A DNA stretch of 33,184 bases from a virus. Its lineage: Duplodnaviria; Caudoviricetes. Where the stretch lies: positions 1 to 33,184 of the IMG/VR virus record IMGVR_UViG_3300030451_001850; one strand, written 5' to 3'. Position 1 is the stretch's first letter. Each line of letters begins with the position of its first letter. Under the pieces are notes generated by a model, which worked only from the letters and a program-made list of their open reading frames with translations, did no database searches and was not told where the DNA came from. Made by a program: the position numbers and the translations under genes. Positions 840 through 33,184 of this stretch are shown piece after piece.

Positions 840-3800
840 TCACAATGCATTATCACTTGGTTTAAATATTCCATCTAATACTGGATCTAAATAGAACAAG
901 TTGCCCCCTGGCAATACAAATCTTGCACTATCTAGTGTCTTTTGATCTGCACTAAAGGTTAATAAATCAGTTCCTACAGAACCTAATGTTGCAATGTTAC
1001 CTCCAGCTGGCCCAGCTAATGCACCAGCTTTTGCACCAAAAGGCATTGGTTTTTCTGTATCACTACCTAATAATGGTCTTAACCCAAGTTTATAATCTGA
1101 TATTTTTTCCAATGTATTGTTTACATCTGTAAACCAACCTAATGCACCACTTCTATCAACTGCATCTATAACAACATCATTAATAGTATCTCTACTATCA
1201 TCAATACCATATTGTGCTTTCTTTATCTCATTTACAACTAATGATAACCCAACAAGCCATGTAAGACCTTGCCAAAATGCAGCATCCTTCTCTTGCAAGC
1301 CAGCTGTAAGTAATCTAACCATGGCACCTTGTCCATAGCTTTTAAACTGAGTTATAAGAGAGCCAAACTCTGTTGATGTCCATAAAGCTCTGTCACCAGC
1401 TCCAGGTGTTATGATTGTTCTTTCTACAGTTTGGTTTAATGCGTTTCTAAATGTTTTTCTTGCAGTAGCATCTGTCCAAAAATCTGTATTTGGCATAAAC
1501 TCACCATCTACTCTTTGTCCATGTTGTCTTATTTGTAAAGCCATTCTACTATGCATTTGCTGATCTATGCCATTAGATAGAAATTTCTCTTGATCCCTTC
1601 TTGTAAGACTAGCCCAAGGTTTCATTATCTGATCTGTCATACGAAGCATTGTAGTTGTACCAGCAAATTCTTTCATTATTTGATTCCACCAGTTCAAACC
1701 ATTGGCAATAAAGAATATACCTGTACTTTGGTTTAATCTTCTTTCCCAAGCAAATCTAGAACCAAAAGTATCTCCTATATCAGCAAACTGAGAAGCTCTT
1801 AGACCTAGTACAGCATCAGCTGCTACACCAGCTTGTTGTAGTTCTTTTTTAGTCATTTGCTTTATTATACTTCTTGATTGTTTAAAGAAGTGTGCAATAC
1901 CTTTTTCGTTGGTTGCTCTTAGACCTTCCACCATCATTGGCCTTACTAAATCAGGAATACTAGATACAACTGCACCACCCATACCTACAAGTACATTAAA
2001 AGATTTCATTGCTCTTACAAATCTACTACTTGTTGCATGTGGGTCTTTAGATGCACCATATGTACCACGAAGTCTATCTCTTAATCCTTTAATATCTCTT
2101 AGATCATTAGCTAAATTCTTTTTTAATTCTCTCCTCTTTTGTAGATTAGGTGCTTCTCTTATTAAGATTTTGTAATCATCTTCTACTGCTTTAATTAAAT
2201 CAGCGATATCAATGTCACCAAAAGTTCTAGTAAGTTCTATGTCCATTCCCATAGTTCTTGTATGATGTCTTAAAACAGATTCAACATCATTATCAAGAAA
2301 GTCATCAATTAGATTGTCTGGTATTTCAAATGTTCTTGCTTTAGTAGATGATGCATTTGTTATCCAATCGATATTCATAGCTTCATCAGGTAAATCATAA
2401 TATGGCTTACTTCTTGTAACCTGATCCATCATTTCATTGGCAAATGCTCTAGATTGAGTTCTATTCAATCCATATGTTCTGCCAGCCCATTGACTTACTC
2501 TAGCAATAAACTGATCTTGATTATCCATTATCTTATCTACTCTCCATATTCTTGGAAAGAATCCATCAGCAGTATTAACCATAACACCAGCAACTCTTAT
2601 TTGTTCTAGATATCCTTTAGCTTTTTGCAAGTCTTCTGTTAACTTTGCTTTTTGTGCTGGATCTGTTGTCTTGGCTATTTTTGCTTCTAAAGATTTAATT
2701 CTTTTGCCAGCTTGTTTTTCAAATAGTTTTACTTGCTGTGCATTATCTTTAATTAAATCAAGATGTTTTTTTACTTGTGTAGCTGATGCATTTACATAAG
2801 GTGTTGCTGAATCAGTTACTGTATCACCATTGTTTCTTACTGCCTTTGCAATTCTTGATCTAAATTCAGATTCAGTTAAATGATCTGATTGTTTAAATAC
2901 ATCTTTAACTTTCTGACTTAAGACTTGATATGATCTTTGTATATCACCATCAGATGCTTGAACACCACGATAGGATAAATATTGCTCATCTACAATATTT
3001 AAAGTTTTGACAAGACTAGGTGTATAAGTTGTTCTAAAAGTTGTTTCTAAACTTTGATCCATTGCAAGTTTTGCATCAACTTTTTTCTGTTGCATGCCAC
3101 CTAGATCAACCATCTTGGCAACTGTATTTCTAACTAATGCATTAGGACTTTGCAATAATCTTGTTACAGGATTCCATGGTAATTTTTCTATACCTATACC
3201 AGTTTCTTTTAATGCATCTTGATCCATTGTTGCATATGCAGTTTCTCTTGATCTTTGTGGATTAATGCCAGCACCACCTTCTTTAAATACTTTAGTTTCT
3301 ACACTTTGTATTGGACTAAAAGGTTTGCTCTTAGCAGTTGTTGTTGTCTTGGCTGTCTTAGTAGGATCTACAGATTCAGCCCATAAAACTGGGCCTTCAT
3401 TAAAATACATTCGAGTACTATATTTACCAAGAGCAGTAGATAAACTACCACCAATAATACCAGCAGTTAGTATAACACCACTACTATCAATGATATCTCT
3501 TGACTCTAGCTCTTGTGCCATAATGATTTCTTCAGGTGCAATAGCAGCTCCAGTTGTTACAAATCCACCTTTAAATCTTTCTTTAGCTTTAGCAGCTCTT
3601 AGATATCTTAATGGAGCCAGAGGTGCAAATATAGCTGGAGAAGTCAAAGAAGATAACACTTGTGGCAAAAGATGATCTGTTGAAGCCAATATCTCCATGT
3701 CTTCAATATCACGTTTCATATTTTGTATTCTTTGTGCAGTTTCACCACTACTACCACTATCTTTGAATCTGTAAATGTAGCCCTCAAGACCAGCATCTTT

Positions 3801-4028
3801 TATTTGATTATCTGCAAAAGGATCGTAGCCTTCTTCTACTTCATACTCCTCATCTACAAATAATCTTGTTATGGCTTCATATGGTGCAAATTGATTAAAT
3901 GAGGCACTAAATACTTGTGATAATGTAGGTTCATAAGGTGAGAATGTTCTGTAAATATTATCATTATTGATCAAATTTACTCTTACTTCATTTTGCTGAT
4001 CTATTAATTTTTTTAGTTCTGGATTCAT
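840..4028 (-). CDS. Large internal virion (ejection) protein, T7 gp16-like position
   Basis: 1062 aa, helical; C-terminal region QFKSYGQGAMVR...DRSGALGWF typical of podovirus internal proteins; synteny. Confidence 0.7.
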   Translation of the reverse strand: MNPELKKLIDQQNEVRVNLINNDNIYRTFSPYEPTLSQVFSASFNQFAPYEAITRLFVDEEYEVEEGYDPFADNQIKDAGLEGYIYRFKDSGSSGETAQRIQNMKRDIEDMEILASTDHLLPQVLSSLTSPAIFAPLAPLRYLRAAKAKERFKGGFVTTGAAIAPEEIIMAQELESRDIIDSSGVILTAGIIGGSLSTALGKYSTRMYFNEGPVLWAESVDPTKTAKTTTTAKSKPFSPIQSVETKVFKEGGAGINPQRSRETAYATMDQDALKETGIGIEKLPWNPVTRLLQSPNALVRNTVAKMVDLGGMQQKKVDAKLAMDQSLETTFRTTYTPSLVKTLNIVDEQYLSYRGVQASDGDIQRSYQVLSQKVKDVFKQSDHLTESEFRSRIAKAVRNNGDTVTDSATPYVNASATQVKKHLDLIKDNAQQVKLFEKQAGKRIKSLEAKIAKTTDPAQKAKLTEDLQKAKGYLEQIRVAGVMVNTADGFFPRIWRVDKIMDNQDQFIARVSQWAGRTYGLNRTQSRAFANEMMDQVTRSKPYYDLPDEAMNIDWITNASSTKARTFEIPDNLIDDFLDNDVESVLRHHTRTMGMDIELTRTFGDIDIADLIKAVEDDYKILIREAPNLQKRRELKKNLANDLRDIKGLRDRLRGTYGASKDPHATSSRFVRAMKSFNVLVGMGGAVVSSIPDLVRPMMVEGLRATNEKGIAHFFKQSRSIIKQMTKKELQQAGVAADAVLGLRASQFADIGDTFGSRFAWERRLNQSTGIFFIANGLNWWNQIMKEFAGTTTMLRMTDQIMKPWASLTRRDQEKFLSNGIDQQMHSRMALQIRQHGQRVDGEFMPNTDFWTDATARKTFRNALNQTVERTIITPGAGDRALWTSTEFGSLITQFKSYGQGAMVRLLTAGLQEKDAAFWQGLTWLVGLSLVVNEIKKAQYGIDDSRDTINDVVIDAVDRSGALGWFTDVNNTLEKISDYKLGLRPLLGSDTEKPMPFGAKAGALAGPAGGNIATLGSVGTDLLTFSADQKTLDSARFVLPGGNLFYLDPVLDGIFKPSDNAL

Positions 4029-15485: not shown

Positions 15486-17020
15486 AATGCTCTCAAAGAC
15501 CTTCCTCGTTTTCTACTTCTCATTCTATCAAAGGGATTACTTACCCTCTGGACTATGGTAGGGGTTTTTGGTGTGTTTAGACCAATAACAACCTTTTTCC
15601 CCTCTCCACCCCCAAGAAAAGCGTACTGTAGTGCATCATGTATGTGTGAAAACCTATTCTTCTCTGGTTTATCTTCATACTTTTCATTACCCATATAGTA
15701 AATTCTTTTATATTGATAACCTCCCTCGAAGCCAGAGATAAGATTTGTACATGTTGGGGATATAAGTAAAGACGGATAACCCTCTGACATCCTATTAATA
15801 ACACCTTCTACAGCTTCTATGCGAACTGATATATCATTACTTGGAGCTGGATAAGCAGCTATACCACATGCTCTCATTATCATAAAAGGAGTATGTTCAG
15901 ATGTTTGAGCCATTTGATTGCCAGCTGGATCGCCAATAAACTTATAAGTTAGTTTATCCCATTCATTTTTTGCTATTTCTTTTTTAAGATACTCAGCAAA
16001 ACGTGTAGCTCCCATATCTTTGCCAATAACTTCATGGAAAACAATCCATCGACCAGCATGTATATTCTGACAGAATATGGCACTAGGAGTTCTACCAAAA
16101 TCTAAACCAACAATTACATCTACTTCTTTCTTTGGCTCTAAAGATTCTGTAGCAACATGTGTATCTTTTCTAAATGTAGGATAAACTTGTTTACCATCCA
16201 TGATTGTTTGATATTGATTAAGTACATAAACTTTTACCCAACTTGGGGATTTACCTAATATAATTTTATCATAGTATTCTGATTGTAGATTCTGTCTATT
16301 TTCAGAGTGTGGATTAGATACATAACCAACTAGATTGCCATTCTCATCTTTATTTTCTTTCATTGCACCAGCTTGAGAGAAAAAATTCCAGTCATCAGGT
16401 TTTACCATCAGTAACTTTTCTTCTTGAGTTAGGTACTCAGGTATAGGAACTTCTCCACTTACAATACCCCACCAATGAGATTCATCAGGGCTATTGGTAT
16501 CCATAATAACACCATACCAACTTGGGCCACCCTCTCTCATAGATGGAAAACGACCAACTCTCATTGTGCAAGCATCAACTATACTTTTTGATATTTCTCT
16601 TGCTTCATTAATCCATACACCAGTAAGTTCTAAAGATAATAGCTTTTTGACATCTTCAGATTTATCAAGAGCCAGAAATATGACTTCAAGTTCTACTGTA
16701 GTTTCATCAGGTAGAGCAAAACAAACATTATGAGTATAGGGAGGACTCCAAACAAATCTGCCAAGATCATCACTAAACCAATCTCTCCAAGTTTTGATTG
16801 TTGTTGTTTTAAGTTGAGGATTTGTATTTCTGATAACAGCCCATCGACTTCTTCTTACTTTCTGATCATTAGGTTTCTGCTTAATAGCTTTCCTCATGAT
16901 CTCCATGCAACAAGCAACTGATTTACCACTACCAACTGGCCCTCTGATACCACGAACAAAAGAACCATCTTTCATAAAAGATTTAGCAACGACTCCAGGT
17001 GGTTTGTAGTCTAGATTCAT
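15482..17020 (-). CDS. terL: Terminase large subunit
   Basis: Walker A GPVGSGKS, Walker B VWINE, coupling motif DTN, nuclease GLDFG...HIHDALQY. Confidence 0.95.
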   Translation of the reverse strand: MNLDYKPPGVVAKSFMKDGSFVRGIRGPVGSGKSVACCMEIMRKAIKQKPNDQKVRRSRWAVIRNTNPQLKTTTIKTWRDWFSDDLGRFVWSPPYTHNVCFALPDETTVELEVIFLALDKSEDVKKLLSLELTGVWINEAREISKSIVDACTMRVGRFPSMREGGPSWYGVIMDTNSPDESHWWGIVSGEVPIPEYLTQEEKLLMVKPDDWNFFSQAGAMKENKDENGNLVGYVSNPHSENRQNLQSEYYDKIILGKSPSWVKVYVLNQYQTIMDGKQVYPTFRKDTHVATESLEPKKEVDVIVGLDFGRTPSAIFCQNIHAGRWIVFHEVIGKDMGATRFAEYLKKEIAKNEWDKLTYKFIGDPAGNQMAQTSEHTPFMIMRACGIAAYPAPSNDISVRIEAVEGVINRMSEGYPSLLISPTCTNLISGFEGGYQYKRIYYMGNEKYEDKPEKNRFSHIHDALQYAFLGGGEGKKVVIGLNTPKTPTIVQRVSNPFDRMRSRKRGRSLRAL

Positions 17021-17679
17021 CCTAGTAACTGTCTACGTCTTGCTCCACCACCTTGAGATAACAAGCCACGTCTAGCAGCTGCACTTACACCACCAGTTGT
17101 ACTATCTGTTTTATTCTGTGTTTGAATTTGTGATCCACTTGTTCCTACATTTCCAGATTCAGAAGAATTGTCACTACCAGCGACATCTTTCAATGCTTCT
17201 GTTGTGTATCTTTGAGTTTTTCTATCAAACATTACACCAGTACTTCTGCCAATTGGATTATAAGCACTTTCACCAGAAAATCTGCCATCTCTTACAACAC
17301 CACGATATTGACCATCACGATCAAAGACTGCATTACCACCTTTACGAAGTTCACCAGCTTGTTGTCTAAAAGATAAAGTCCTAGCAAAACTAGCTGCTCT
17401 ACCTAAGGGAAACATAGCTTCTCTCATGTTCAGTATTTTGTTGCCACGTTTCTGTCCAGTAAAATCTTCTGTATTAGCTCTTTGCTCTAAATCCATAGCA
17501 AGACTAGCATTATCCCTTACTGTCTTAGCTTCCTGAGAACTTATAGCTAGATCAATCCCTTGAGCTGCTGCTTTTCTTTGCTCAGTATAATTATCAAAGG
17601 CTTTCTGTCTTTCTTTCTTCTGCCTTTGAACTTGAGCATTTTCTATTTCTGATCCACCTGAACTTGATTCACTTCCCAT
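17017..17679 (-). CDS. Hypothetical Gly/Ser-rich protein, possibly virion-associated
   Basis: 220 aa, RBS AGGAG, ends AARRGLLSQGGGARRRQLLG. Confidence 0.6.
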   Translation of the reverse strand: MGSESSSGGSEIENAQVQRQKKERQKAFDNYTEQRKAAAQGIDLAISSQEAKTVRDNASLAMDLEQRANTEDFTGQKRGNKILNMREAMFPLGRAASFARTLSFRQQAGELRKGGNAVFDRDGQYRGVVRDGRFSGESAYNPIGRSTGVMFDRKTQRYTTEALKDVAGSDNSSESGNVGTSGSQIQTQNKTDSTTGGVSAAARRGLLSQGGGARRRQLLG

Positions 17680-17830: not shown

Positions 17831-18262
17831 TCAGTCTACGTTAAAATTTATATTTACAGCTGTGTTCGCTTGCCTAGGAGCATCTACACGCATGCCAGCT
17901 CTATCCATCAGGTCTTTACTTGCTTCCAATCGTATGTACGAGGACTTAGCAGTCAGTAGTTCCCTCATAGTTGCCAATGCTTGTGTCGCATCCCATCCCA
18001 GAGTCATCATGCTTAACTTCTGTCTGTACTCTATAACATGTTGTTTTACAATGGTTTTGTACGCCCATGCTTTGTTCCTACCTAACCTCTTACTTGCTTC
18101 TGTTGGGTTGCAACCATCATGCAACATCATGTGGACTAATTCAGCTTGTGCATCAGTTATCTCACTCATTGGTCGTAACGTCTTTGCATTACTCTCAATC
18201 TCATTCATGGGTACTTTGCTTCTGCTGTATCGTTCTTGTTGTATTACGTCTGCTTTGGTCAT
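17831..18262 (-). CDS. terS: Terminase small subunit (probable)
   Basis: HTH-like NPTEASKRLG, IRLEASKDLMDRAG helix, beta tail VNINFNVD; first gene of the late operon. Confidence 0.75.
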   Translation of the reverse strand: MTKADVIQQERYSRSKVPMNEIESNAKTLRPMSEITDAQAELVHMMLHDGCNPTEASKRLGRNKAWAYKTIVKQHVIEYRQKLSMMTLGWDATQALATMRELLTAKSSYIRLEASKDLMDRAGMRVDAPRQANTAVNINFNVD

Positions 18263-18290
18263 ATCCGTGGAATCATCAGGTTACGGAATG

Positions 18291-18320
18291 ATAATACACT
18301 CAAGCCATTTGAGTTGTCAA
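18291..18320 (-). promoter_or_regulatory. Sigma70-type promoter for terS/late operon with palindrome in spacer
   Basis: TTGACA (18320-18315)-N18-TATTAT; ACTCAA-N5-TTGAGT inverted repeat at 18298-18314. Confidence 0.6.
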
Positions 18321-18337
18321 TGCACAGGTGCTAACCA
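18309..18337 (+). promoter_or_regulatory. Possible rightward promoter for the structured region/early operon
   Basis: TTGAGT-N17-TAACCA; weak -10, but same geometry as the pair at 24927-24973. Confidence 0.35.
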
Positions 18338-18344
18338 TTTGTTT

Positions 18345-18955
18345 TTGTTGGAGCTTTTCCAGCTCTATTCGCTAAGGAGTAAACTCCTAACCTCATCGAC
18401 ACGAAGGTGTGTCGACCCAGTCGGGTAACGATCTGGGCTAGGATACTAACTCCAGTCCGTTTTCATAAGCTCTTAGAAATAAACTACATTCTAGTCAGCT
18501 TGGCAGCTTCCTTCCATTCCGTTTATTTTGTTATACAGAACATGCATCGATCTTATGAAAGCCGTTGCTTCGAAAGTATACAAACTTGCTAAGTTTGATC
18601 AAGGCTAATTGTGTCGGCACAGGCCGACTATCATCATCATCATGATTTTCCTACCCCATATTATAATTGTACGTGCAAATTTGATCTAAGTCAGACGTAA
18701 CAGAAAATAGACTGATCGAGTCATATCCCACATCCTGTACTGGTCTATTTTCTCTAAGTCTTCCGTAAGAACAAAGCGTATCTTATCAAGACGATTTTTG
18801 CAAAAAATGAACGTATCCCTGAAGAAGGGACCCTCGTTAATTTTTCACAACAAGGGGGTTCCTAAGAGGTCACCCCAAATCATATTGACAATCTACTTTC
18901 ACACTAAGGGGGTAATACAAATAGGAAAATCATCATGCTGTTGATCTTTTTATTT
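18345..18955 (+). ncRNA. Candidate large structured RNA (or single-stranded DNA element)
   Basis: More than 10 hairpins and nested long-range stems, including 18630-18653/18922-18945 (21 of 24 paired); G-U pairs favour the + strand; no convincing ORF. Confidence 0.55.
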
Positions 18956-18987
18956 TATTAACTTAACTGAAACAAAGGAGCTATATT

Positions 18988-19179
18988 ATGACACAGTTAA
19001 ATTTATTTACATTCAAATCAGTAGAGCCAGAGTCAGACATTGAGAAATTGGCTGGCATGGTTCATGTTGACACAGTTGATATGGACATTATCGACTTGGA
19101 TATACAAACAGCAATCGAGACTGGTGACTACCAAAGGTTGAGCCAGTTGCGTGAAATTAAAAAATCAATTGTAGAATAG
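18988..19179 (+). CDS. Hypothetical acidic early protein
   Basis: 63 aa, RBS AAAGGAG. Confidence 0.75.
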   Translation: MTQLNLFTFKSVEPESDIEKLAGMVHVDTVDMDIIDLDIQTAIETGDYQRLSQLREIKKSIVE

Positions 19180-19188
19180 GAGGAACAT

Positions 19189-19857
19189 ATGACTACATTG
19201 ACAACACTTCAAGACTTAGTTCAGATCCGTGATCAGCTCAATGAGAAACTTGATCTTATTGAGCAACAACGTATCAAGAATGAGAAAGAAAATGAAGCAA
19301 TAACAACGGAGATGTTAGATGAAATCGCTAAACAATTTATACCAAGACCTGATACCAACAAGGCTTTTGAGGACAAGCTGGTCGCAGTTCTCATCTCACT
19401 TGTCAACTTATTTGGTGACGACAGTAACGAGGTTATCATCCAAGCCAAACTTGGAGACCAAGTCACAAGGATGTTTGAGAAGATGGCAGACAATGTTCTC
19501 AACCAAGGTCAAGCACTCAAGAAAGAACTCAAGACCTTGCAACGACAGGATGTCGGTATTGAGATCACTCAGAACCAAGTTGAAGACAAAGTTGAGCAGA
19601 TCAACAAAATGCGATACCAATACAGCATACTCAATTGGTGCTTCAAGGTTTGCAGAGATAAGTTCAGACCTCAAGTCAAGGGCATCACAGGTATCGACTT
19701 TGGTCAGTACACAATGCTCAAAGATATGCCAAAGGTTGTTCACAAGATCAAGCAAGGCAAGAAGTTGACCATCGATACTCTTGTCAATGATCGTGACTTA
19801 TTCATGGACATCAGTAATCAAGAGGGCATCGTTGAAATGCCTGAGGATTTACAGTAA
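19189..19857 (+). CDS. Hypothetical coiled-coil early protein
   Basis: 222 aa, RBS AGGAGG. Confidence 0.8.
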   Translation: MTTLTTLQDLVQIRDQLNEKLDLIEQQRIKNEKENEAITTEMLDEIAKQFIPRPDTNKAFEDKLVAVLISLVNLFGDDSNEVIIQAKLGDQVTRMFEKMADNVLNQGQALKKELKTLQRQDVGIEITQNQVEDKVEQINKMRYQYSILNWCFKVCRDKFRPQVKGITGIDFGQYTMLKDMPKVVHKIKQGKKLTIDTLVNDRDLFMDISNQEGIVEMPEDLQ

Positions 19858-19868
19858 CTTCATCAACA

Positions 19869-19896
19869 TTGGGAGAGCCAGAGATGGTTCTCTCAA
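19869..19896 (+). other. 12-bp intergenic hairpin with GAGA tetraloop
   Basis: TTGGGAGAGCCA-GAGA-TGGTTCTCTCAA, two G-U pairs, no long U tract. Confidence 0.7.
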
Positions 19897-19913
19897 ATTA
19901 ATTAGAGGATACC

Positions 19914-20102
19914 ATGGATATAAAAACTAAAAAAAGATTACTTGATTTAAAACGAGATAAACTTTTACATGACAAAGCTCTCAAGAAATATCAAAAGTCT
20001 GTAGATGCAGGTAATATGTATGACCTAAGAATTGTACACTACATAAAGAAAACGCTTGTATCAATAGAGTCGGACATCAAAAGACTTGAGAGTACTACAT
20101 AG
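19914..20102 (+). CDS. Hypothetical protein
   Basis: 62 aa, RBS GAGG. Confidence 0.7.
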   Translation: MDIKTKKRLLDLKRDKLLHDKALKKYQKSVDAGNMYDLRIVHYIKKTLVSIESDIKRLESTT

Positions 20103-20171
20103 AGGGGAGGGCAAAAGGAACCACCTTGCCCTTCCATCTTCCAGGGAATATTGCCTCAGAAAGGATTTATT

Positions 20172-20375
20172 ATGTCGCAAGAAATATTACAATGTCCATC
20201 ATGCAAACAACACAGCCTCAGAGAGATGACTAATCATGAGATCGATCAATGGTACTGTGTACTATGCTTACTGCATATCAAAAAGCCAAAGAAGACTGGT
20301 AATGGTAGAGCAGTTCACAAACAATATCCAAAAAAAGTTTACAATAGGGGTGGCAGATGTTTTTTTATTTACTAG
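20172..20375 (+). CDS. Small zinc-ribbon protein
   Basis: Start reassigned to ATG 20172 after AAGGA; CPSC...CVLC. Confidence 0.6.
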   Translation: MSQEILQCPSCKQHSLREMTNHEIDQWYCVLCLLHIKKPKKTGNGRAVHKQYPKKVYNRGGRCFFIY

Positions 20376-20641
20376 CTGGTTTCATATCAGCATGTGCAAT
20401 ACTCTTTTTACTTGCAAAATTAGGCATGAAAAGAGTTCTAAACTATGACATCATTGTCGATATAGTATCGACTCTGGCTCTCATATTTATGTTTGCTGGC
20501 ACATTTGCTGGCATGATGGCTGGTGTCATAGGTGGTGCAATCATATCCATTGTTCTATTTATTCTAAAGAAAACAATAGGTTATGAGAAGCCAGTAAGAA
20601 AAGGATTCAAAGTGCATTGGGAATATGTTCCACCAAAGTAA
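20357..20641 (+). CDS. Small multi-pass membrane protein
   Basis: 94 aa with about three hydrophobic segments and a basic tail. Confidence 0.75.
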   Translation: MFFYLLAGFISACAILFLLAKLGMKRVLNYDIIVDIVSTLALIFMFAGTFAGMMAGVIGGAIISIVLFILKKTIGYEKPVRKGFKVHWEYVPPK

Positions 20642-20644
20642 CTT

Positions 20645-20878
20645 TGATAGTGTCATGTTTGGGGCAAAACTTCCAAGGCAGTAATGGTTTACAGCCTATC
20701 CCTAGTTTGAGGTCTTGCAAGCTACTCAGATGAGCGAAGTTTAGACACGAATACATCTATATAAGTTGTCATTAAGTATACGTTAGATGTGTAGATGCAG
20801 ATACCAAGTCGACATGGTGGCAAGTCTGCAACAGAGGCTAGACCTGATGCCTCAGCCTAGATATCAATCATGGCATTA
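20645..20878 (+). ncRNA. Candidate ~230-nt multibranch RNA with kissing loops
   Basis: Closing stem 20648-20657/20869-20878, at least six internal helices, complementary loops AGGTCT (20710-20715) and AGACCT (20840-20845). Confidence 0.65.
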
Positions 20879-20916
20879 CCCTTTGGTTTACATTATGTGA
20901 GCCAGAGGGTATTTTT
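20877..20916 (+). terminator. Intrinsic terminator-like hairpin
   Basis: TACCCTTTGGTTTACA-TTA-TGTGAGCCAGAGGGTA (16 bp, 3 G-U) then TTTTT. Confidence 0.75.
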
Positions 20917-20974
20917 ATGAGTGGAGCAGTTGTTGCTCTTAATTTTAATCATACACAACGTAAAGGAGAAAAGT

Positions 20975-21391
20975 ATGAATTTTGCTCAAATCACTATATC
21001 AGGTAATGTTGGTCAAGCACCAGAGATCAAAGAAATCAATGGTACAAAGGTGGCTAACTTTTCTGTAGCAGTCAACGAATCTTACAACACTAAAGCTGGT
21101 GAGAAAGTTGAGAAGACACATTGGTATCCTATCGAAGCATGGGATGGTTCACAAGGCAAAGGTCTTGTATCCAATGTCATTGAGAAGTATCTTACAGTCG
21201 GTACAACAGTACTTGTTCAAGGTATGCCAATGATTGAAACCTATGAAAAAGATGGAGAGAAGCGTAAAGCCTTCAAGATCAAACTTGCTGGTACTGGTTC
21301 TACATTCCGTCTTACTGGTGGAGCTAAGAAAGATTCATCCACAGTCGGTGATGCACCAAAGGTTGAAGACAACGATGAGGTACCATTCTAA
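20975..21391 (+). CDS. ssb: Single-stranded DNA-binding protein
   Basis: GNVGQAPE, VANFSVAVNE, acidic tip DNDEVPF; start reassigned to ATG after AAAGGAG. Confidence 0.93.
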   Translation: MNFAQITISGNVGQAPEIKEINGTKVANFSVAVNESYNTKAGEKVEKTHWYPIEAWDGSQGKGLVSNVIEKYLTVGTTVLVQGMPMIETYEKDGEKRKAFKIKLAGTGSTFRLTGGAKKDSSTVGDAPKVEDNDEVPF

Positions 21392-21412
21392 AGAACATCA
21401 GGTCCGATGTAT

Positions 21413-21441
21413 GGGGGTAGTGAAAGCTATCCCCTTTTTTT
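21413..21441 (+). terminator. Intrinsic terminator after ssb
   Basis: GGGGGTAGT-GAAA-GCTATCCCC then T7. Confidence 0.85.
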
Positions 21442-21506
21442 ATGATGAGGGGTGCAATCCTCTTTCATTTCAATCCCCCTCATCGCCACAAATACAGGAG
21501 CATCTT

Positions 21507-21788
21507 ATGATTGTAAGTGACAAAAAGAACAGACTCATCAAAGCTATATTGATGGACAACAAGAACACCATTGAAAGTTTTGACTTTGATGAAGACTATC
21601 CATCAGATATGGAACAACGTATTGAATGGTTCACAACTGATGACCAGACAGATAAAGAATCAATGGCCTATCACATTGGTTACAAACATGGCATGAATAA
21701 GGCAGTACAAGTCTTATGTCATCTCAACAAGAAACACCTGGACTCACAACTCAAAAGCTATGAGGTGACGTATGAGCCGAGGGATTAA
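21507..21788 (+). CDS. Hypothetical protein
   Basis: Start reassigned to ATG 21507 after AGGAG (MIVSDKKNRLIK...). Confidence 0.7.
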   Translation: MIVSDKKNRLIKAILMDNKNTIESFDFDEDYPSDMEQRIEWFTTDDQTDKESMAYHIGYKHGMNKAVQVLCHLNKKHLDSQLKSYEVTYEPRD

Positions 21789-21897
21789 GAAAAGAAAAGG
21801 CTCTGAGATAGTATCAATGAGCCGTAAGCATGTAAAAAAGAATAAAAAACTAGCATCCAAAAGGAGGAGAAAATGGAGCTATTGCCTCAACAAATAA
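21772..21897 (+). CDS. Possible small, highly basic protein (41 aa)
   Basis: Manual ORF MSRGIKKRKGSEIVSMSRKHVKKNKKLASKRRRKWSYCLNK after GAGGTG; fills the intergenic gap. Confidence 0.45.
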   Translation: MSRGIKKRKGSEIVSMSRKHVKKNKKLASKRRRKWSYCLNK

Positions 21898-22202
21898 AAA
21901 ATAAATTAAAAGAAAATCATATCGCCACAATGAAGGATGATACAGTAAGCCACAAACCAGTTGTAAAATACTTTACACCATTTGGTGGTGCAACATGGCT
22001 CATCTCAGAGATTGATGATGAGAACATGATGTTTGGCCTCTGTGATCTTGGTCAGGGATTCCCTGAACTTGGCTATGTGCATCTGCAAGACCTTATGTCA
22101 CTAAAGCCAAATTGTGAGAGGGATTTGTATTTTAAACCTAAGTATACTATTTCACAGTATGCAGATAAATCTAGACAGAAAGGAAGAATCGTCTATGAGT
22201 AA
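21873..22202 (+). CDS. DUF2958-like protein
   Basis: PVVKYFTPFGGATWLISE...FGLCDLGQGFPELGYV...ERDLYF. Confidence 0.85.
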   Translation: MELLPQQIKNKLKENHIATMKDDTVSHKPVVKYFTPFGGATWLISEIDDENMMFGLCDLGQGFPELGYVHLQDLMSLKPNCERDLYFKPKYTISQYADKSRQKGRIVYE

Positions 22203-22431
22203 AATAAAAACATTAGCTAAAGAGTTTACCTATGCAAGAGAAGCTGTAGCTATATATCAAAAGTCATGTGTTAGCCACAGTTTTAAACATCAGGACATGA
22301 CACTATTGAAAGACCTTGATAGTATGAAGTATTGGATTGAAGAACTTCAAAAGAAAGAGGAAGAACTTTTCAAACTTCTTGTAGTCAAAAAATTATTGGA
22401 CAAGCCAAAGGAGGACAAAGATGTGGCATAG
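22195..22431 (+). CDS. Hypothetical protein
   Basis: Start reassigned to MSKIKTLAK after AAGGA, overlapping the previous stop. Confidence 0.65.
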   Translation: MSKIKTLAKEFTYAREAVAIYQKSCVSHSFKHQDMTLLKDLDSMKYWIEELQKKEEELFKLLVVKKLLDKPKEDKDVA

Positions 22432-22639
22432 ACTCAAAGAGTTTTCTTTTCTCAATCGCAAAGCATCATGGATTGGATGGTTTGTGGTTGTTCATCTCAT
22501 CCAATCAGCTGTCATTTTGTTTCTAATGATGGCTATGGGTATCAATCCGACACTTGTTGTATCAGTTATTGCAGCTCCTTTATGGATTGCAGTTGCTTTT
22601 GCCAGCAAGTTCATTACGGATAAAATTGTAACTAACTAA
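22421..22639 (+). CDS. Small two-TM membrane protein
   Basis: RBS GGAGG, two hydrophobic helices. Confidence 0.7.
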   Translation: MWHRLKEFSFLNRKASWIGWFVVVHLIQSAVILFLMMAMGINPTLVVSVIAAPLWIAVAFASKFITDKIVTN

Positions 22640-22651
22640 CAGGAGGATAAT

Positions 22652-24217
22652 TTGAAAATACCTTTAAATCAACTCAAGCCTGATCCCAACAATATCAGAA
22701 AGGTGAAGGCTAACAATCTTGATGCACTCATTGCCTCAATACAAAGTCGTGACTTACTACACAACCTTGTTGTCAAAAAGAATGGCACAGGTTACATCAT
22801 TATCGATGGCAACAGAAGATTCAAAGCACTACAGGAAATACATGGTGCAGAATCTATTGAGCCAGTAGAATGTAAAGTCATTGATGAACATGACAGAGAA
22901 GTTGGCTTACATGCTAACATGATGAGAGAAGGCATGCATCCACTTGATGAGTCTGATGTAATCTTCAAACTATGTGAAGATGGATCAGAAGACTTTGATT
23001 CTATTGCCAAACGATTTGGTCAAACTGGTAAGTGGGTACAACAGAGAGTCGCATTGTCTGAACTCATACCAGCAGTCAAGAAAGCATTTCGTAACTGTGA
23101 GATGAATCTTGGTACAGCCTCTTTGTTTACAAGACTAAACAAGACACAACAGTCAGAGTTATTCAAATCATGTGATGGTGACTATGACTATCGTGATATC
23201 AAATGGCAAATTGATAATGCTCAAATCATGAAAGACAAAGTAATTATCCCACCAAACCACAAGCTCTACAAAGATATTGAGTTTGAGGGTGATCTGTTTT
23301 CAGACAGACAGTATGTTGCTAATGTAGATCAACTACAAAAGCTACAAATGGAGTATGTAGAAGACAAGATTGCTTATTGGTCTAAGAGGTTTGAGAAAGT
23401 TCACTACCTTGAAGACACACCAGTCTATGAAGCTACCAACATAGTCAAGCATCTAACTAAAGACTTTGACAAGAAGACTTACAAAGATGCTGATCTACAG
23501 ATTACTGTACACTATGACTGGAGGCGTGGTGAGTTCTACATGCAGAAATGGTTGGACAAACGTAAAGCTAGTGCAGCTGAGATTGAAGCAGTAGAAAATG
23601 GTGAAGTACCAGAACTTACACTTGCTGATATGTCTAATCCACAACACCAAGAGATGATACAAATGCATTTTGGTGCTTTGAGAAATGCTATCTACAATCA
23701 GCACAAACCAGAGCCTCAAGACATGCTTGGTTATTTCTGTGGCAATCTATTTACACCTTACACCAATATATCAGCTGAGTCTGTTATTCCATCTTATGAA
23801 AACAGTTTAGCAGAGCCTAATGATCTCTTTGAAAATGAATTGGCTGACATCAGAACAGAACTATCTGATTGGGTAGAGAAGAATCCTGATCTGCCAAGAG
23901 CCAAGTTCTTTATTGGTAAGGGATATCAATATTGTTGTCGTGCATTGTATGTAAGAGCTATGGTTTCATCTACGGAAGGTGAAGTAAGTCAGATGAATGA
24001 ACTTATGTACAAGGCAAATCTAGAAAACAACTGGTTTCAGCCAGACTACAACTGGATCAAGAAGTACAAGACTACACAGTTATACATGTTATGTAATGAA
24101 CTGAAGATCAAATACTCTGAGAGAGATAAGAAAGGTGATCTTGTAGAAAAGATTGTTGCCTCTATCAGAGATGGTAAGTCTTACGATCCTATTGAGTTAC
24201 TCAAGAATGTGAAGTAA
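22652..24217 (+). CDS. Large ParB/Srx-domain + HTH protein (plasmid YubM/ParB2-like)
   Basis: TTG start after AGGAGG; GNRRFKAL Arg patch, ANMMREGMHPLDE, HTH SIAKRFGQTGKWVQQRVAL, C-terminal WFQP...KKGDL. Confidence 0.85.
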   Translation: MKIPLNQLKPDPNNIRKVKANNLDALIASIQSRDLLHNLVVKKNGTGYIIIDGNRRFKALQEIHGAESIEPVECKVIDEHDREVGLHANMMREGMHPLDESDVIFKLCEDGSEDFDSIAKRFGQTGKWVQQRVALSELIPAVKKAFRNCEMNLGTASLFTRLNKTQQSELFKSCDGDYDYRDIKWQIDNAQIMKDKVIIPPNHKLYKDIEFEGDLFSDRQYVANVDQLQKLQMEYVEDKIAYWSKRFEKVHYLEDTPVYEATNIVKHLTKDFDKKTYKDADLQITVHYDWRRGEFYMQKWLDKRKASAAEIEAVENGEVPELTLADMSNPQHQEMIQMHFGALRNAIYNQHKPEPQDMLGYFCGNLFTPYTNISAESVIPSYENSLAEPNDLFENELADIRTELSDWVEKNPDLPRAKFFIGKGYQYCCRALYVRAMVSSTEGEVSQMNELMYKANLENNWFQPDYNWIKKYKTTQLYMLCNELKIKYSERDKKGDLVEKIVASIRDGKSYDPIELLKNVK

Positions 24218-24219
24218 AA

Positions 24220-24699
24220 CTATTGATACTTGCTGAAGTTCATCCCCCAATAAGCTATGAGGGATGCTTCGGCAAGACCATCATATGTCTTTAACTGCCA
24301 AAGATGAGAGCCTTGTGGCATCAACTCAGATGCTCTTTTACGAGTAGCATCTTTATCACTTGTGCAGTTAAGATCACTTTTCCATTTACGAGGCACAACT
24401 TCTGTGTATGGTAGACCTATTGCCACAAGCATACCAAGATATATTCCATATCCCATGCCTGTTGCAAATGTACTAGCTAAACCTTGTTGTGGCATAGCTT
24501 GTTGTTTTTCTATAAACACATGCTCTGGTTTTTGATCTGCTAAGATACTATTAAGACTCCACATATCTAGAAATCTTTTTTGTTTCTTGCCTATGTTTAC
24601 TCTAAACACAGGTGCTTTCTCAGCTTGAATATACTTTGAGTCTGAATGAATGAAGCTAACTGCTCCATTTAGTCCAGGATCAATGCCACATACTATCAT
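24220..24699 (-). CDS. RuvC-like Holliday junction resolvase
   Basis: GIDPG, VFIEKQ, VPRKWK, DGLAEASLIA. Confidence 0.85.
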   Translation of the reverse strand: MIVCGIDPGLNGAVSFIHSDSKYIQAEKAPVFRVNIGKKQKRFLDMWSLNSILADQKPEHVFIEKQQAMPQQGLASTFATGMGYGIYLGMLVAIGLPYTEVVPRKWKSDLNCTSDKDATRKRASELMPQGSHLWQLKTYDGLAEASLIAYWGMNFSKYQ

Positions 24700-24910
24700 T
24701 ACGAACCTCCAGTTTTAGTTTGCAACCAAGGGCCTCAGCCCAACAATACAAATTAAAAGCTGTTGGCTTTCGATTTCCAGTTTCCCACTTAGCAACTAGA
24801 CCAGTCGCACATCCTATACGATCATCTAGTGCAGCTTGTGGTAGACCTAGCTGGTATCTACGTTTCTTCAACTGAGTAACAAGATCGTCAGCATATCTCT
24901 TTTCAGTCAT
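24680..24910 (-). CDS. XRE/Cro-like HTH regulator
   Basis: LKKRRYQLGLPQAALDDRIG...VAKWETGNRKP...AEALG; RBS GAGGTG. Confidence 0.85.
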   Translation of the reverse strand: MTEKRYADDLVTQLKKRRYQLGLPQAALDDRIGCATGLVAKWETGNRKPTAFNLYCWAEALGCKLKLEVRNDSMWH

Positions 24911-29569: not shown

Positions 29570-29737
29570 TTACCTCACTAACAATCCTATTAAAAGGACT
29601 ATGATTGTTCCTGCTGTGCCAATCATAATATGTTCAATACGTTTGATACGAAGGATAGTTTCTTTCCATCTCTCTGCACACACAGCTTCATGTGTATCTA
29701 TCTGTGATTTAACTTCTGTTACTGATGGTCTAGGCAT
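29570..29737 (-). CDS. Small coiled-coil + TM protein (XhlA-like architecture)
   Basis: HEAVCAERW...IIVLLIGLLVR; start reassigned to MPRPSV. Confidence 0.65.
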   Translation of the reverse strand: MPRPSVTEVKSQIDTHEAVCAERWKETILRIKRIEHIMIGTAGTIIVLLIGLLVR

Positions 29738-29760
29738 ATACTCTAATATTATACCCCACA

Positions 29761-30327
29761 TTATGCCTTTATTTCCATAAAGGTTACAGAAGATTCCGTA
29801 GTGCTATTGTAATTTGAACCATTATATCCATCTATATTAAGCATAACATCATAACCATTAGCACTAGAATATCCTGTTATTTTATAAGTAATTGCACTAG
29901 ATGAATCTGTTAAGCCAGTATTTGTTGAATCAAGGAATTGATAAAAGTCTGAATGTATTCCATAACCCATAGCATTAACATTGGTATGATTATAATAAGC
30001 TCCTAATATTTGTCTATTAGATGTTCTACTGTTTTGAGTTCCAGTAGCACCAGTTGAAATAGTTGCATAACTACCATTGCCAATCTTTCTTTGCATATTA
30101 AGATAAACAGTTAAGTAACTTGTCATTTTTAAATTATATTGAACAAGTATTTTACTATTAGAAAATAATCTAGTAAAACTTACTTCCGTGCCAGGAATCA
30201 ATGTTTCGTTTGCAGTTGTAGTCATGTTTATTGTGCCAAAGTTAGTAAAAGGAGTTGTTTCAGATTTTACTATTGACCCAGTTGCATAATTGTTTGCACT
30301 TGAAAAATTTAATTTTGTTAATGCCAT
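29761..30327 (-). CDS. Putative tail/adhesin protein, paralog 4
   Basis: SNSKILV...AITYKI...SSVTFMEIKA. Confidence 0.65.
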   Translation of the reverse strand: MALTKLNFSSANNYATGSIVKSETTPFTNFGTINMTTTANETLIPGTEVSFTRLFSNSKILVQYNLKMTSYLTVYLNMQRKIGNGSYATISTGATGTQNSRTSNRQILGAYYNHTNVNAMGYGIHSDFYQFLDSTNTGLTDSSSAITYKITGYSSANGYDVMLNIDGYNGSNYNSTTESSVTFMEIKA

Positions 30328-30854
30328 TACCCAGCCACCTCCATAATAGTAAGTGTTGATATACCTCTATGTCCATAGTCTGCATCTGAATCTGTTCCAC
30401 TTCTATTTATATACATTGTTCCATCAACATCATGTCTGACTTGAACCTTGTACGTTATTGCTGAAGTACTATTAGGAGAATCTAAAAATGTTACTGAACT
30501 TTGATGCAATTTATAAGTTTCATTACCAGCTCCAACTAAATTTAATGGAAAACTAACATTTTGTCGATTTCCAGTTGCTGTTGTTCCAACTGCTATATCT
30601 GTAGAATCTCTCATTATATATCCACTTCCATAATTATTAGTGTGCGTACTGCCATAACAAACACTAGCCATAATTAGTATTTTTGACGAAGCACTTGATG
30701 GTGTAATAGATAGAGATAAATTAGGTATATCTGTTCTTTGATCTACTGTTAAAGACATTGTGTCTGTATATGAACCACTTTTAACTTGCTTAATAAAGTT
30801 GTAAGCAGTACCACTACTGTTCTGAATATTGTTTACTTTAATTATACTTGTCAT
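30327..30854 (-). CDS. Putative tail/adhesin protein, paralog 3
   Basis: ITPSSASSKILI...LDSPNSTSAITYKVQ...TLTIMEVAG. Confidence 0.65.
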   Translation of the reverse strand: MTSIIKVNNIQNSSGTAYNFIKQVKSGSYTDTMSLTVDQRTDIPNLSLSITPSSASSKILIMASVCYGSTHTNNYGSGYIMRDSTDIAVGTTATGNRQNVSFPLNLVGAGNETYKLHQSSVTFLDSPNSTSAITYKVQVRHDVDGTMYINRSGTDSDADYGHRGISTLTIMEVAG

Positions 30855-31429
30855 TACCCAGCTACCTCCATAACAGTTAGTGTTGATATAGGTGCAAATA
30901 TAGTATTTGCATCAGTAAATGTTTGGAAAGTATTAATATAAATATAGCTTGAACCTTCTACCATGCCTTGTACTTTATAAGTAACTGCTGAAGTTGTTTG
31001 TGGATCATCATAAAGAGTCATTGTAACTGGTGTATTTGGAATATTCGAACCACCACCATCAAATATAGCATGAGCTAATTGTCGGCTTCCTTGTGAAGTA
31101 GTTGCACCACCTAAAGACCCAGCACTAAAATCTGGTAAATCAAAATCAGTAAAAGAACCAGTGCCTATCTTTCTTACTACTTTAATAGCACCTCTTTGAT
31201 TTGCATTTGCATTTGCACTTACATTAAACGTAATCAAAAATTTACTTGTTGTTGCCGAAGGAGTTAATGTTACAGTTAAATTTGTTATGTCTACAAAACT
31301 AGATGAATTTGATGTTTCATTACCAAGAAATTGTGCAAACCCAACTTGCTTTATAAAATTGTAAGGAGTGCCACTTGTATTTTTTATATTAGTGACTTCT
31401 AAGTTTGTTGCATTTATAATTCCACTCAT
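30854..31429 (-). CDS. Putative tail/adhesin protein, paralog 2
   Basis: LTPSATTSKFLI...DDPQTTSAVTYKVQ...TLTVMEVAG. Confidence 0.65.
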   Translation of the reverse strand: MSGIINATNLEVTNIKNTSGTPYNFIKQVGFAQFLGNETSNSSSFVDITNLTVTLTPSATTSKFLITFNVSANANANQRGAIKVVRKIGTGSFTDFDLPDFSAGSLGGATTSQGSRQLAHAIFDGGGSNIPNTPVTMTLYDDPQTTSAVTYKVQGMVEGSSYIYINTFQTFTDANTIFAPISTLTVMEVAG

Positions 31430-31848
31430 CCTATTAATACTCCAGTAAATAATGAATTATGACCAAAAGTACCACTACCATTTGTAGCCATAAAAGCAGT
31501 AACTACATCATTTGCAGATAGTTCTAATGGAGCAGTCAAGGTGTTAGCATCACTTCCATTATGCCAATGACCAAAAGGACTATATGGATTTGATCCATTA
31601 ACATTAAAATATTTTGATGAATTATCATTGTTACTTGTAAAAGTACATAGATAAACACCAGCAGTAGTAATTGTTATTGCACCACTATTATTTGTAACAC
31701 CTCTTAACTTATGAACTTGGTCAAAAGCTAATGTTCCCTCAACTTGTGAATTACTACTAAAGCCTAAAACCCATATAGGTTTATTAGGTATTGTTACTGT
31801 ACCACCACTTGTCTTTGGCTCTATTGTATCTACAAATATTTTAGACAA
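31426..31848 (-). CDS. C1q-like beta-sandwich virion protein
   Basis: AFDQV...ITTAGVYL...LELSANDVV...FTGVLIG. Confidence 0.6.
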   Translation of the reverse strand: MSKIFVDTIEPKTSGGTVTIPNKPIWVLGFSSNSQVEGTLAFDQVHKLRGVTNNSGAITITTAGVYLCTFTSNNDNSSKYFNVNGSNPYSPFGHWHNGSDANTLTAPLELSANDVVTAFMATNGSGTFGHNSLFTGVLIG

Positions 31849-32305
31849 TTGTTAACACTCCATTTACTGTTAAGGTAACACCATTATCTATGGTTATATC
31901 TCCAGCAACCATTGCTCTTTCAGATGTGCCTATTGTTATGTTATCTGATATTGTTGAATCATTTATTCTTAGAGGATCACGAAACAATGTAGTCGATAAA
32001 TGTGTACCTTGTACTGATCCAGTTGATGGTACACCACTAGACAAAGCACTACCCATAACAAGTATGTAATCGATAACATCACTTGCTGATAATGTTTCTG
32101 TAAAAACAATCTGTGATCCTGATATATTAAAAGCATCTTGTGGTGCTTGTGTTACACCATTAACAGACACAATACATTGCTCAGTTGTTCCAGGTGCGAA
32201 AGCTGCACCATTTCTTTGTAAGTTAAATGTGTTAGTTGCACTTGTTGTTATGGCATCTAATTTTATAAACTCCCCAGTAATATTTTCTCTACCTACATAA
32301 GGCAT
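31841..32305 (-). CDS. Putative virion structural protein
   Basis: MPYVG..., VSVNGVTQAP...FNISGSQIVFTE, C-terminal GVTLTVNGVLTIV. Confidence 0.6.
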   Translation of the reverse strand: MPYVGRENITGEFIKLDAITTSATNTFNLQRNGAAFAPGTTEQCIVSVNGVTQAPQDAFNISGSQIVFTETLSASDVIDYILVMGSALSSGVPSTGSVQGTHLSTTLFRDPLRINDSTISDNITIGTSERAMVAGDITIDNGVTLTVNGVLTIV

Positions 32306-32308
32306 CTG

Positions 32309-32521
32309 TTACTCCGTTGGTTTCTCTGGAAATGAAAATCCTTCATCTTCCATTGATTGATAAGTATTTGTTATATCTCTTAATGCTTGTCTGTATGTTT
32401 TCCAAGATGATGGCACAGTAGCATTGTTCTCTCTAGCTTTAATTACAACCCAATCAGAATCTCTTAACAAAGCATTTCTATCATCTCTTAACTTTAATAA
32501 TTGTATTTCTGCATTATTCAT
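32309..32521 (-). CDS. Tail fibre assembly chaperone
   Basis: LRDDRNALLRDSDW...WKTYRQALRDIT...FPEKP. Confidence 0.85.
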   Translation of the reverse strand: MNNAEIQLLKLRDDRNALLRDSDWVVIKARENNATVPSSWKTYRQALRDITNTYQSMEDEGFSFPEKPTE

Positions 32522-33081
32522 TAGCCTTTAATCTCCATAGCTGTAAGCATTGAAATATTATGATTTACAAAAGACGCATTTGACCAACCAGCAATACCAG
32601 TTCCAGTACTTGTTTTTATATATACACCATAACGAACACTTTGAGTTGTGTTAGGAGAATCTAATCCTTGATAAGTTGTAAAATCCCAATCTCCACCAAC
32701 ATTTGCTCTTGTAAATCCATTAGCATCAAATGTTTGAGTTGAATCCATATTAGTAATGTCTGTAAATGAACCACTATTTATACTTCTTTTAAACATATAA
32801 AATGTAGTTGCATTAGTAGTGTTATTATATGAAGGGTGATTTGCAATAACTAGTATTTTACTATTTGTAGCTGATGGAGTTATATCAACATAATAACCGT
32901 GATCTACTTGACTTGTCCATGTAGAGCCACTTGTATGAACTGCATAAGCATTACTAACTGACACACCATTTAATGTAGGTGAAGTAACGACAGTTTGTAG
33001 TATAGAGCCACTTGGCAAGTTAGAAGATACTATAGTACCAACTGAATCTATTGAAGCTGATTTTATTTTACTTAATGCCAT
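32521..33081 (-). CDS. Putative tail/adhesin protein, paralog 1
   Basis: GSILQTV...ITPSATNSKILV...LDSPNTTQSVRY...MLTAMEIKG. Confidence 0.65.
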   Translation of the reverse strand: MALSKIKSASIDSVGTIVSSNLPSGSILQTVVTSPTLNGVSVSNAYAVHTSGSTWTSQVDHGYYVDITPSATNSKILVIANHPSYNNTTNATTFYMFKRSINSGSFTDITNMDSTQTFDANGFTRANVGGDWDFTTYQGLDSPNTTQSVRYGVYIKTSTGTGIAGWSNASFVNHNISMLTAMEIKG

Positions 33082-33088
33082 AACTTCC

Positions 33089-33184
33089 TCATGTCTTTAT
33101 GCAATACAACATTGATACGTTTTTAGGTCTTGTTTCATTTGATGATACTTTAATATTAGGATTTGATGAATTAGAGTTCTGCCA
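33089..33184 (-). CDS. C-terminal fragment of a tail-collar type fibre protein
   Basis: Manual translation ...SSNETRPKNVSMLYCIKT*, the typical ETRPxN...YCIK ending. Confidence 0.8.
   Translation of the reverse strand, partial: WQNSNSSNPNIKVSSNETRPKNVSMLYCIKT

Follow-up and report, generated by a model that had tools for sequence, protein, structure and literature searches.

Gene layout around the terS-early gap

The window analysed here is a whole virus record of 33,184 bases and belongs to a marine podophage; Pfam and PHROG recognize genes for portal, capsid, tail and terminase in it. Late genes run leftward from terS (17831..18262, minus strand; PHROG terS, E 1.8e-6), the small terminase gene and first gene of the late operon, and early genes run rightward from 18988. 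The gap between them (18263-18987, 725 nt) is the largest gene-free stretch of the genome, as a preliminary description had noted, the next being 333 nt; its longest ATG frames (31-95 aa) differ between related regions, and no frame is shared across the ORF lists. An ordinary sigma70 duplex promoter serves terS and the late genes (18291..18320, minus strand; -35 at 18320-15, -10 at 18296-91), and because this leftward promoter is canonical in 45 of the 45 related regions described below, the late transcript does not include the folded part of the gap. A box at 18332-18344, immediately before the terS -35, resembles an IHF site; similar boxes occur in many relatives.

The early operon (18988..24217, plus strand) encodes a 63-aa gene product, a 222-aa helical protein, SSB, a DUF2958 protein and a long ParB-like protein. 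The 222-aa protein (19189-19857) is conserved and all-helical (pLDDT 85), and Pfam, Atlas, phage and fold searches returned no match to it. Judged by the best plasmid hits, the ParB-like protein is closest to alphaproteobacterial plasmid proteins; of its 995 hits two were inspected, one lying near ssb, DUF932 and DUF736 and the other adjoining a zincin-like gene. Genes for a polymerase, a primase or a helicase were not identified among the 34 window ORFs scanned with Pfam and PHROG, nor in five relatives that are 95-100% complete and have a gene order identical to that of the window, and there was no relaxase among the window's Pfam and PHROG hits and no tRNA or tmRNA in the window. Searches by blastn gave only 35-nt chance matches to cultured phages and no match to plasmids, and no relative of terS was found in bacterial genomes, so that no host or prophage was identified.

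Several other features of these genomes were recorded. A RuvC-like resolvase gene and an HTH gene lie on the opposite strand amid the early region (24220-24910) and are listed for four of the five relatives. The gene after terS (17017-17679) and the tail-fibre block (29570-33184) are strongly variable even among near-identical genomes, and the relative G001 has about 2.5 kb of tail genes that the window lacks. One of the five relatives, G004, encodes an integrase together with an S24 repressor and an HTH_17 protein (L148:203-1416, 3260-3856), and from its integrase and repressor some members of this phage group may be temperate. Upstream of ssb, an element of about 65 nt with two hairpins (window 20780-20860) is conserved with stem changes in nine of nine relatives aligned; it has no Rfam match, contigs at 20605-20793 reach a depth of 25-35 in RNA run X20, and it is possibly an ssb autoregulatory element.

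A mosaic fold and the strand that carries it

The preliminary description had reported a densely folded non-coding region in this gap, and its structural observations largely hold. Hairpin stems are present at 18351-65, 18375-88, 18396-415, 18581-97, 18613-28 and 18816-30, as are the 24-nt inverted repeat 18630-53/18922-45 (3 mismatches) and a perfect 11-bp stem at 18702-12/18743-53; CTAAG recurs six times (0.63 expected at the genome-wide rate), and each of two reported 8-mers occurs twice. The 11-bp stem of domain 1 also exists, but what it encloses is one nested arrangement of stem, loop and hairpin, together with a single small hairpin, and not three hairpins side by side. Folded as RNA, the whole region is better than its shuffles on both strands (z -4.0 plus, -4.5 minus), and pairing is kept with covariation across relatives; the single-strand structure is real and selected. 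Domain 2 had the lowest z (-4.5) among 52 minus-strand DNA windows, and it ranked 7th of 55 in a cruder scan whose windows cut off a closing arm. The hairpin at 18816-18830, whose outer pair is variable in relatives, may be akin to the boxB stem-loop of lambda. Near 18-19 kb the GC skew turns, but this turn follows the coding strand and another comes at 27.6 kb, which makes it uninformative on an origin.

A search with terS kept 80 loci, from which 69 complete regions, including the window, were grouped into 45 distinct ones of about 450-1000 nt; because these regions are related to one another, counts over the 45 overstate independence. Each region is a mosaic of modules that recur among the others without change of orientation (970 forward versus 10 reverse local matches), and the set does not represent one conserved RNA. 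At least four unrelated cassette types, together with the cultured phage Hodr, have a common layout. In the window the exchangeable cassette spans 18645..18931, and an unrelated fold of about 200 nt stands between the same flanks in the related loci L002, L003, L111 and L114; in L002 and L003 domain 1 matches that of the window at 92%, and the unrelated fold lies between the same closing arms. Sequencing run X2 contains both cassette alleles, with the break after 18644. We considered a MITE-like insertion or deletion between ATCATCATG repeats and rejected it, as the relatives carry a replacement and not an empty site. Pattern scans for the window's cassette returned the known near-identical contig and chance matches only.

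Domain 1 (18351..18628, minus strand) is a string of small hairpins with one branched module and folds best as minus-strand DNA (z -4.4, against -3.6 as minus-strand RNA and -2.4 as plus-strand RNA); read by eye, its stems change in relatives with pairing kept. It contains a double pyrimidine-GNA-purine internal loop at 18484..18521 on the minus strand (arms 18484-93 and 18512-21), predicted to form a sheared G·A zipper. Such double GNA zippers occur in 10 of the 45 regions on the minus strand and in none on the plus strand, with one further match elsewhere in the genome, and the 2-bp linker of the zipper covaries among three forms. The motif matches the guanine zipper described for the purine strand of satellite DNA (PMC11014236), and G·A mini-hairpins are characterized as exonuclease-resistant and poor in SSB binding (PMC13037366). 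We infer that domain 1 is likely an exonuclease and SSB shield, or a scaffold, of an exposed DNA strand.

Several comparisons bear on the strand to which the fold belongs. Isolated, de-duplicated wobbles in long-range helices favour the minus strand (19 versus 5 on the plus strand, p 0.007), although the 11-bp stem of domain 1 contains a plus-strand wobble. Of the GNNA loops found in 73 distinct tetraloop hairpins, 18 belong to the minus strand and 2 to the plus strand (7 of the 18 being GNRA and 11 GNYA), UNCG loops on the plus strand number 0, and GNA triloops are without strand bias (3 minus, 4 plus). TTTA and CTTG, other frequent minus-strand loops, are stable DNA turns; seen from the plus strand, such loops appear as CTAAG, of which the 45 regions contain 61 plus and 11 minus copies. 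The consensus fold of seven cassettes of one family reaches -26.0 kcal/mol on the minus strand with a covariation bonus and double changes at 10 of 36 pairs, versus -11.5 kcal/mol on the plus strand with a covariation penalty. Domain 2 on its own, folded as DNA, scores nearly equally on the two strands (z -4.9 minus, -4.7 plus). Overall, the fold looks like one of the minus (template) strand, and it resembles DNA and not plus-strand RNA.

A predicted promoter signature in domain 2

Domain 2 (18630..18945, minus strand) is a branched fold-back that we predict to be a single-strand sigma70 promoter of the early genes. Its closing helix pairs a left arm (18630..18653), a triplet repeat that is G/T-rich on the minus strand, with a right arm (18922..18945), and such a helix between the linker and the sequence before the ribosome site recurs in relatives, where the last domain is in most cases a branched rod whose simple-repeat arm pairs with the sequence just before the ribosome site. 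The template arm carries a -35 box, TTGACA (18885..18890, plus strand), 103 nt before the first early ATG and with no -10 in cis. Across the family, an exact -35 pentamer at -110..-70 of the first early ATG is present in 28 of 45 regions (background, 14 of 436 windows), and a search for further conserved early promoters gave none. The line of sequence after this -35 holds no -10: TAnnnT is absent from all 37 cases, TA is present in 1 of 28, and the -10 position is 71% GC versus 45%. These counts also exclude the promoters lacking a T at -7 that are reportedly common in alphaproteobacteria (PMC7703639).

The missing box may instead be supplied by the opposite arm. In the window, the left arm of the cassette bears a second -35, CTGACT (18689..18694, minus strand), predicted to pair with 18885-90, followed by two -10 candidates (18660..18671, minus strand): TACAAT at 18671-66, 17 nt from the -35, and TATAAT at 18665-60, 23 nt from it. 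The paired arm supplies a second -35 in 23 of the 45 regions, and 18 of these 23 have a TAnnnT at the spacings of the rule, for a TAnnnT background rate of 15% per 10 positions; the other 5 have no TAnnnT in range, and in the remaining 22 regions the paired -35 rule does not hold. The spacing from the arm -35 to TAnnnT is 26-33 nt and constant within families, and the spacers contain small hairpins. Judged by eye, the -33 consensus is kept on the template arm in 22 of 23 regions and on the non-template arm in 8 of 23. As set out in PMC2613000, sigma70 recognizes -33/-31 through the template strand but reads the -10 from the non-template strand; taken with the -33 bias, this suggests that each box is best kept on the strand on which a minus-strand fold-back would present it.

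For the window itself, the lowest-energy fold leaves the two -35 copies unpaired, the promoter fold being 2.5 kcal/mol higher on the minus strand and 4.7 on the plus strand. Since its arms fail the ungapped pairing rule (4/12), the promoter assignment of the window rests on a constrained fold and on a compensatory pair at 18674:18903, which is T-A in the window and A-T in the related locus L113; among three near-identical copies there are five variable sites, and two of them form this pair within the promoter spacer. The minus-arm boxes of the window lie 17 nt apart and could also form an ordinary promoter that points leftward.

Among cultured phages, Pelagibacter phage EXVC031P Hodr is the closest relative found (capsid 46%, TerL 55%); PMC10504331 does not mention it. 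Hodr has a rod hairpin of about 170 nt between terS and its first early gene (L081:17517-17687, OQ414635; z -9.7), which also covers the ribosome site. The far arm of the rod reads TTGTTA, 16 nt, TATATT; the in-line copy ends in C, and that in-line box may be functional without a -7 T. After the rod, the early operon encodes ArdC and a DnaT-domain protein, and the comparison of the 222-aa protein with the first gene of Hodr was not significant. ArdC is an ssDNA-binding anti-restriction protein typical of conjugative elements (PMC5512222).

Related systems, alternative readings and a model

Several known systems can be compared with the region. Plasmid Frpo promoters are reportedly the subject of earlier work by Masai and Arai in 1997. 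As described in PMC9849209, PMC11541004 and PMC12672017, they are stem-loops in which both boxes are rebuilt and from which ssb and ParB-like genes are expressed upon entry. The phage element is like the Frpo/ssi promoters of the leading regions of F, ColIb-P9 and pESBL (classes 1-3) in having a large template-strand stem-loop that would rebuild -35 and -10 for the host polymerase, and in its place ahead of early ssb and ParB-like genes (YfjB/HerB in 10.64898/2026.07.07.736705). A long template-strand stem-loop lies directly upstream of the genes, and boxes absent in line would be rebuilt by folding in the window and, under the strict rule, in 18 of the 45 regions, with a predicted spacer geometry. 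Unlike those promoters, however, the element resides in a tailed phage with terminase and portal genes and without a relaxase among the Pfam and PHROG hits, and its cargo genes alone resemble a leading region; it has no DNA similarity by blastn to plasmid records or to class 1-3 promoters, it is branched, with spacer hairpins and a repeat-arm closing helix, and it consists of several unrelated, exchangeable cassettes. The phage element is thus not a member of the plasmid Frpo classes by sequence or location.

Other systems share single features with it. The M13 minus-strand origin and ssoA are single-strand origins primed by RNA polymerase, in which folded ssDNA is recognized as a promoter in a primase-less replicon; no rolling-circle initiator was found here, however, and the phage element is tied to a gene start. 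Phage N4, another tailed phage, uses short template-strand hairpins for early transcription, which are read by its own virion polymerase, whereas the boxes described here are of the sigma70 type and no phage polymerase is encoded. The early hairpin promoters of N4 are also named in PMC13037366. GOLLD, ROOL and other large phage RNAs, as well as ColE1 RNA II, are comparable in size and dense folding within, for the phage RNAs, an intergenic region, and differ in that the region here has no Rfam match, a template-strand fold, a mosaic composition and no 5' promoter. Pelagiphages of the HTVC010P type have their early and late genes in divergent halves and encode neither an RNA nor a DNA polymerase, as outlined in PMC8477408, in which a keyword search gave no mention of such an element; the window shares these traits with them and with Hodr, but it lacks a DnaA- or DnaT-like gene.

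Readings of the region as RNA have to be weighed against these observations. A plus-strand large ncRNA, an antitermination leader or a ColE1-type primer RNA, as suggested by the preliminary description, draws on the z of -4.0 as plus-strand RNA, on T residues after the closing helix in the window and on low-depth RNA-library contigs spanning 18532-19198. The structure is real and covaries, but the plus-strand assignment is not supported: wobbles, loops, zippers and consensus folding all favour the minus strand, rightward duplex promoters occur in 10 of 45 regions at scattered places and near background, and the promoter that a ColE1 RNA II analogue would require at the 5' end of a plus-strand RNA of about 550 nt was not found. 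No intrinsic terminator was called on the plus strand, and a stem with a U tract before the first gene is present in just 10 of the 45 regions. No Rfam match at the gathering score was obtained in the window or 17 related loci (chance matches only, E 5.8 and 8.6). Contig depth over the region (5-6.5, in two of four RNA runs) is like that of neighbouring genes, a weak sign from contigs only that it is not enriched in RNA libraries; those runs hold 5-6% of the words, with strand and level outside their reach. We consider this reading highly improbable. An RNA of the minus strand, either a late-operon leader or a promoter-mimicking, 6S-like decoy, would be expected to show the same wobble bias, the GNRA share of the GNNA loops is in keeping with it, and the window has the possible leftward promoter at 18694-66; nevertheless, a conserved leftward promoter is absent to the right of the region (2/41) and inside it (3/45), terS has its own promoter downstream of the fold in all regions, most of the GNNA loops are GNYA, and the z of domain 1 is lower for DNA than for RNA, all of which makes such an RNA very unlikely.

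Two further readings accept the fold as DNA. Cruciform extrusion from supercoiled duplex, aided by SSB and by the strong divergent terS promoter as in N4, would give a promoter with no true ssDNA stage; the canonical divergent promoter that adjoins every region and the near-equal folding of the two strands of domain 2 agree with it, but extruding imperfect arms around 200-400 nt of branches would be costly, and wobbles, loops and zippers are optimised on a single strand, so that we regard extrusion as quite unlikely. Alternatively, the main job of the same fold could be that of a single-strand origin, at which host RNA polymerase primes the second strand on a displaced minus strand in a phage without primase. 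The missing replication genes of the window and its five relatives would fit such an origin, Frpo-type promoters have also been proposed to prime DNA synthesis (PMC12672017) and mini-hairpins mark ssDNA origins (PMC13037366). Against an origin as the main function stand the fixed spacing between the -35 and the first early gene's ribosome site, the lack of any other conserved early promoter and the fact that no strand-displacing initiator was found, the 222-aa protein being all-helical without a fold match; it is an unlikely explanation.

Because of the strand bias, the fixed -35, the dead in-line -10 and the boxes of the fold-back, domain 2 is likely to be an Frpo-like sigma70 ssDNA promoter. 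As far as sequence can tell, the region probably works like an Frpo promoter, with a modular minus-strand fold whose domain 2 would be read by host sigma70 polymerase only when single-stranded, firing the early genes. In this model, the minus strand would fold back so that the two -35 copies pair, spacer hairpins would shorten the 26-33 nt to about 17, most relatives needing such looped-out hairpins, and the -10 would sit in a predicted mismatch bubble. Polymerase would then start near 18915-18922, as judged from the position of the -10, leave the hairpin and enter the early genes, and this transcript may also serve as primer for the second strand. The exposed strand would find protection or a scaffold in domain 1, with its DNA-type loops and G·A zippers. 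As to the source of ssDNA, we speculate that 5'-to-3' resection of a genome end near terS is likeliest, as it would spare exactly the minus strand: if packaging is by headful and starts near terS, the region would enter first and resection in this direction would leave the minus strand. Strand displacement in replication or supercoil-driven extrusion might expose it instead.

Promoters for host polymerase that require ssDNA are established for conjugative plasmids (PMC9849209, PMC11541004, PMC12672017), and among the titles and abstract openings of the open-access literature we found no description of such a promoter in a tailed dsDNA phage. A wider proposal, which we put forward tentatively and hold to be somewhat doubtful, is that a widespread family of marine tailed phages exposes one strand as ssDNA at entry and carries a plasmid-style leading region, with a nuclease-resistant G·A-zipper fold, an exchangeable ssDNA-only promoter and, among the early genes, ssb and those for ArdC and HerB-like proteins; resection of ends by the host would then become the trigger of infection. 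If the ssDNA promoter itself is borne out, the regions would offer a natural set of unrelated cassettes that converge on a single promoter geometry, and they would point to a biological role that the G·A zipper may have; with the cultured phage Hodr on HTCC1062 the idea is directly testable. It would also mean that polymerase-free marine podophages pass through a single-stranded stage, and it would bear on how phages like HTVC010P begin to transcribe and replicate their genomes using nothing but host enzymes.
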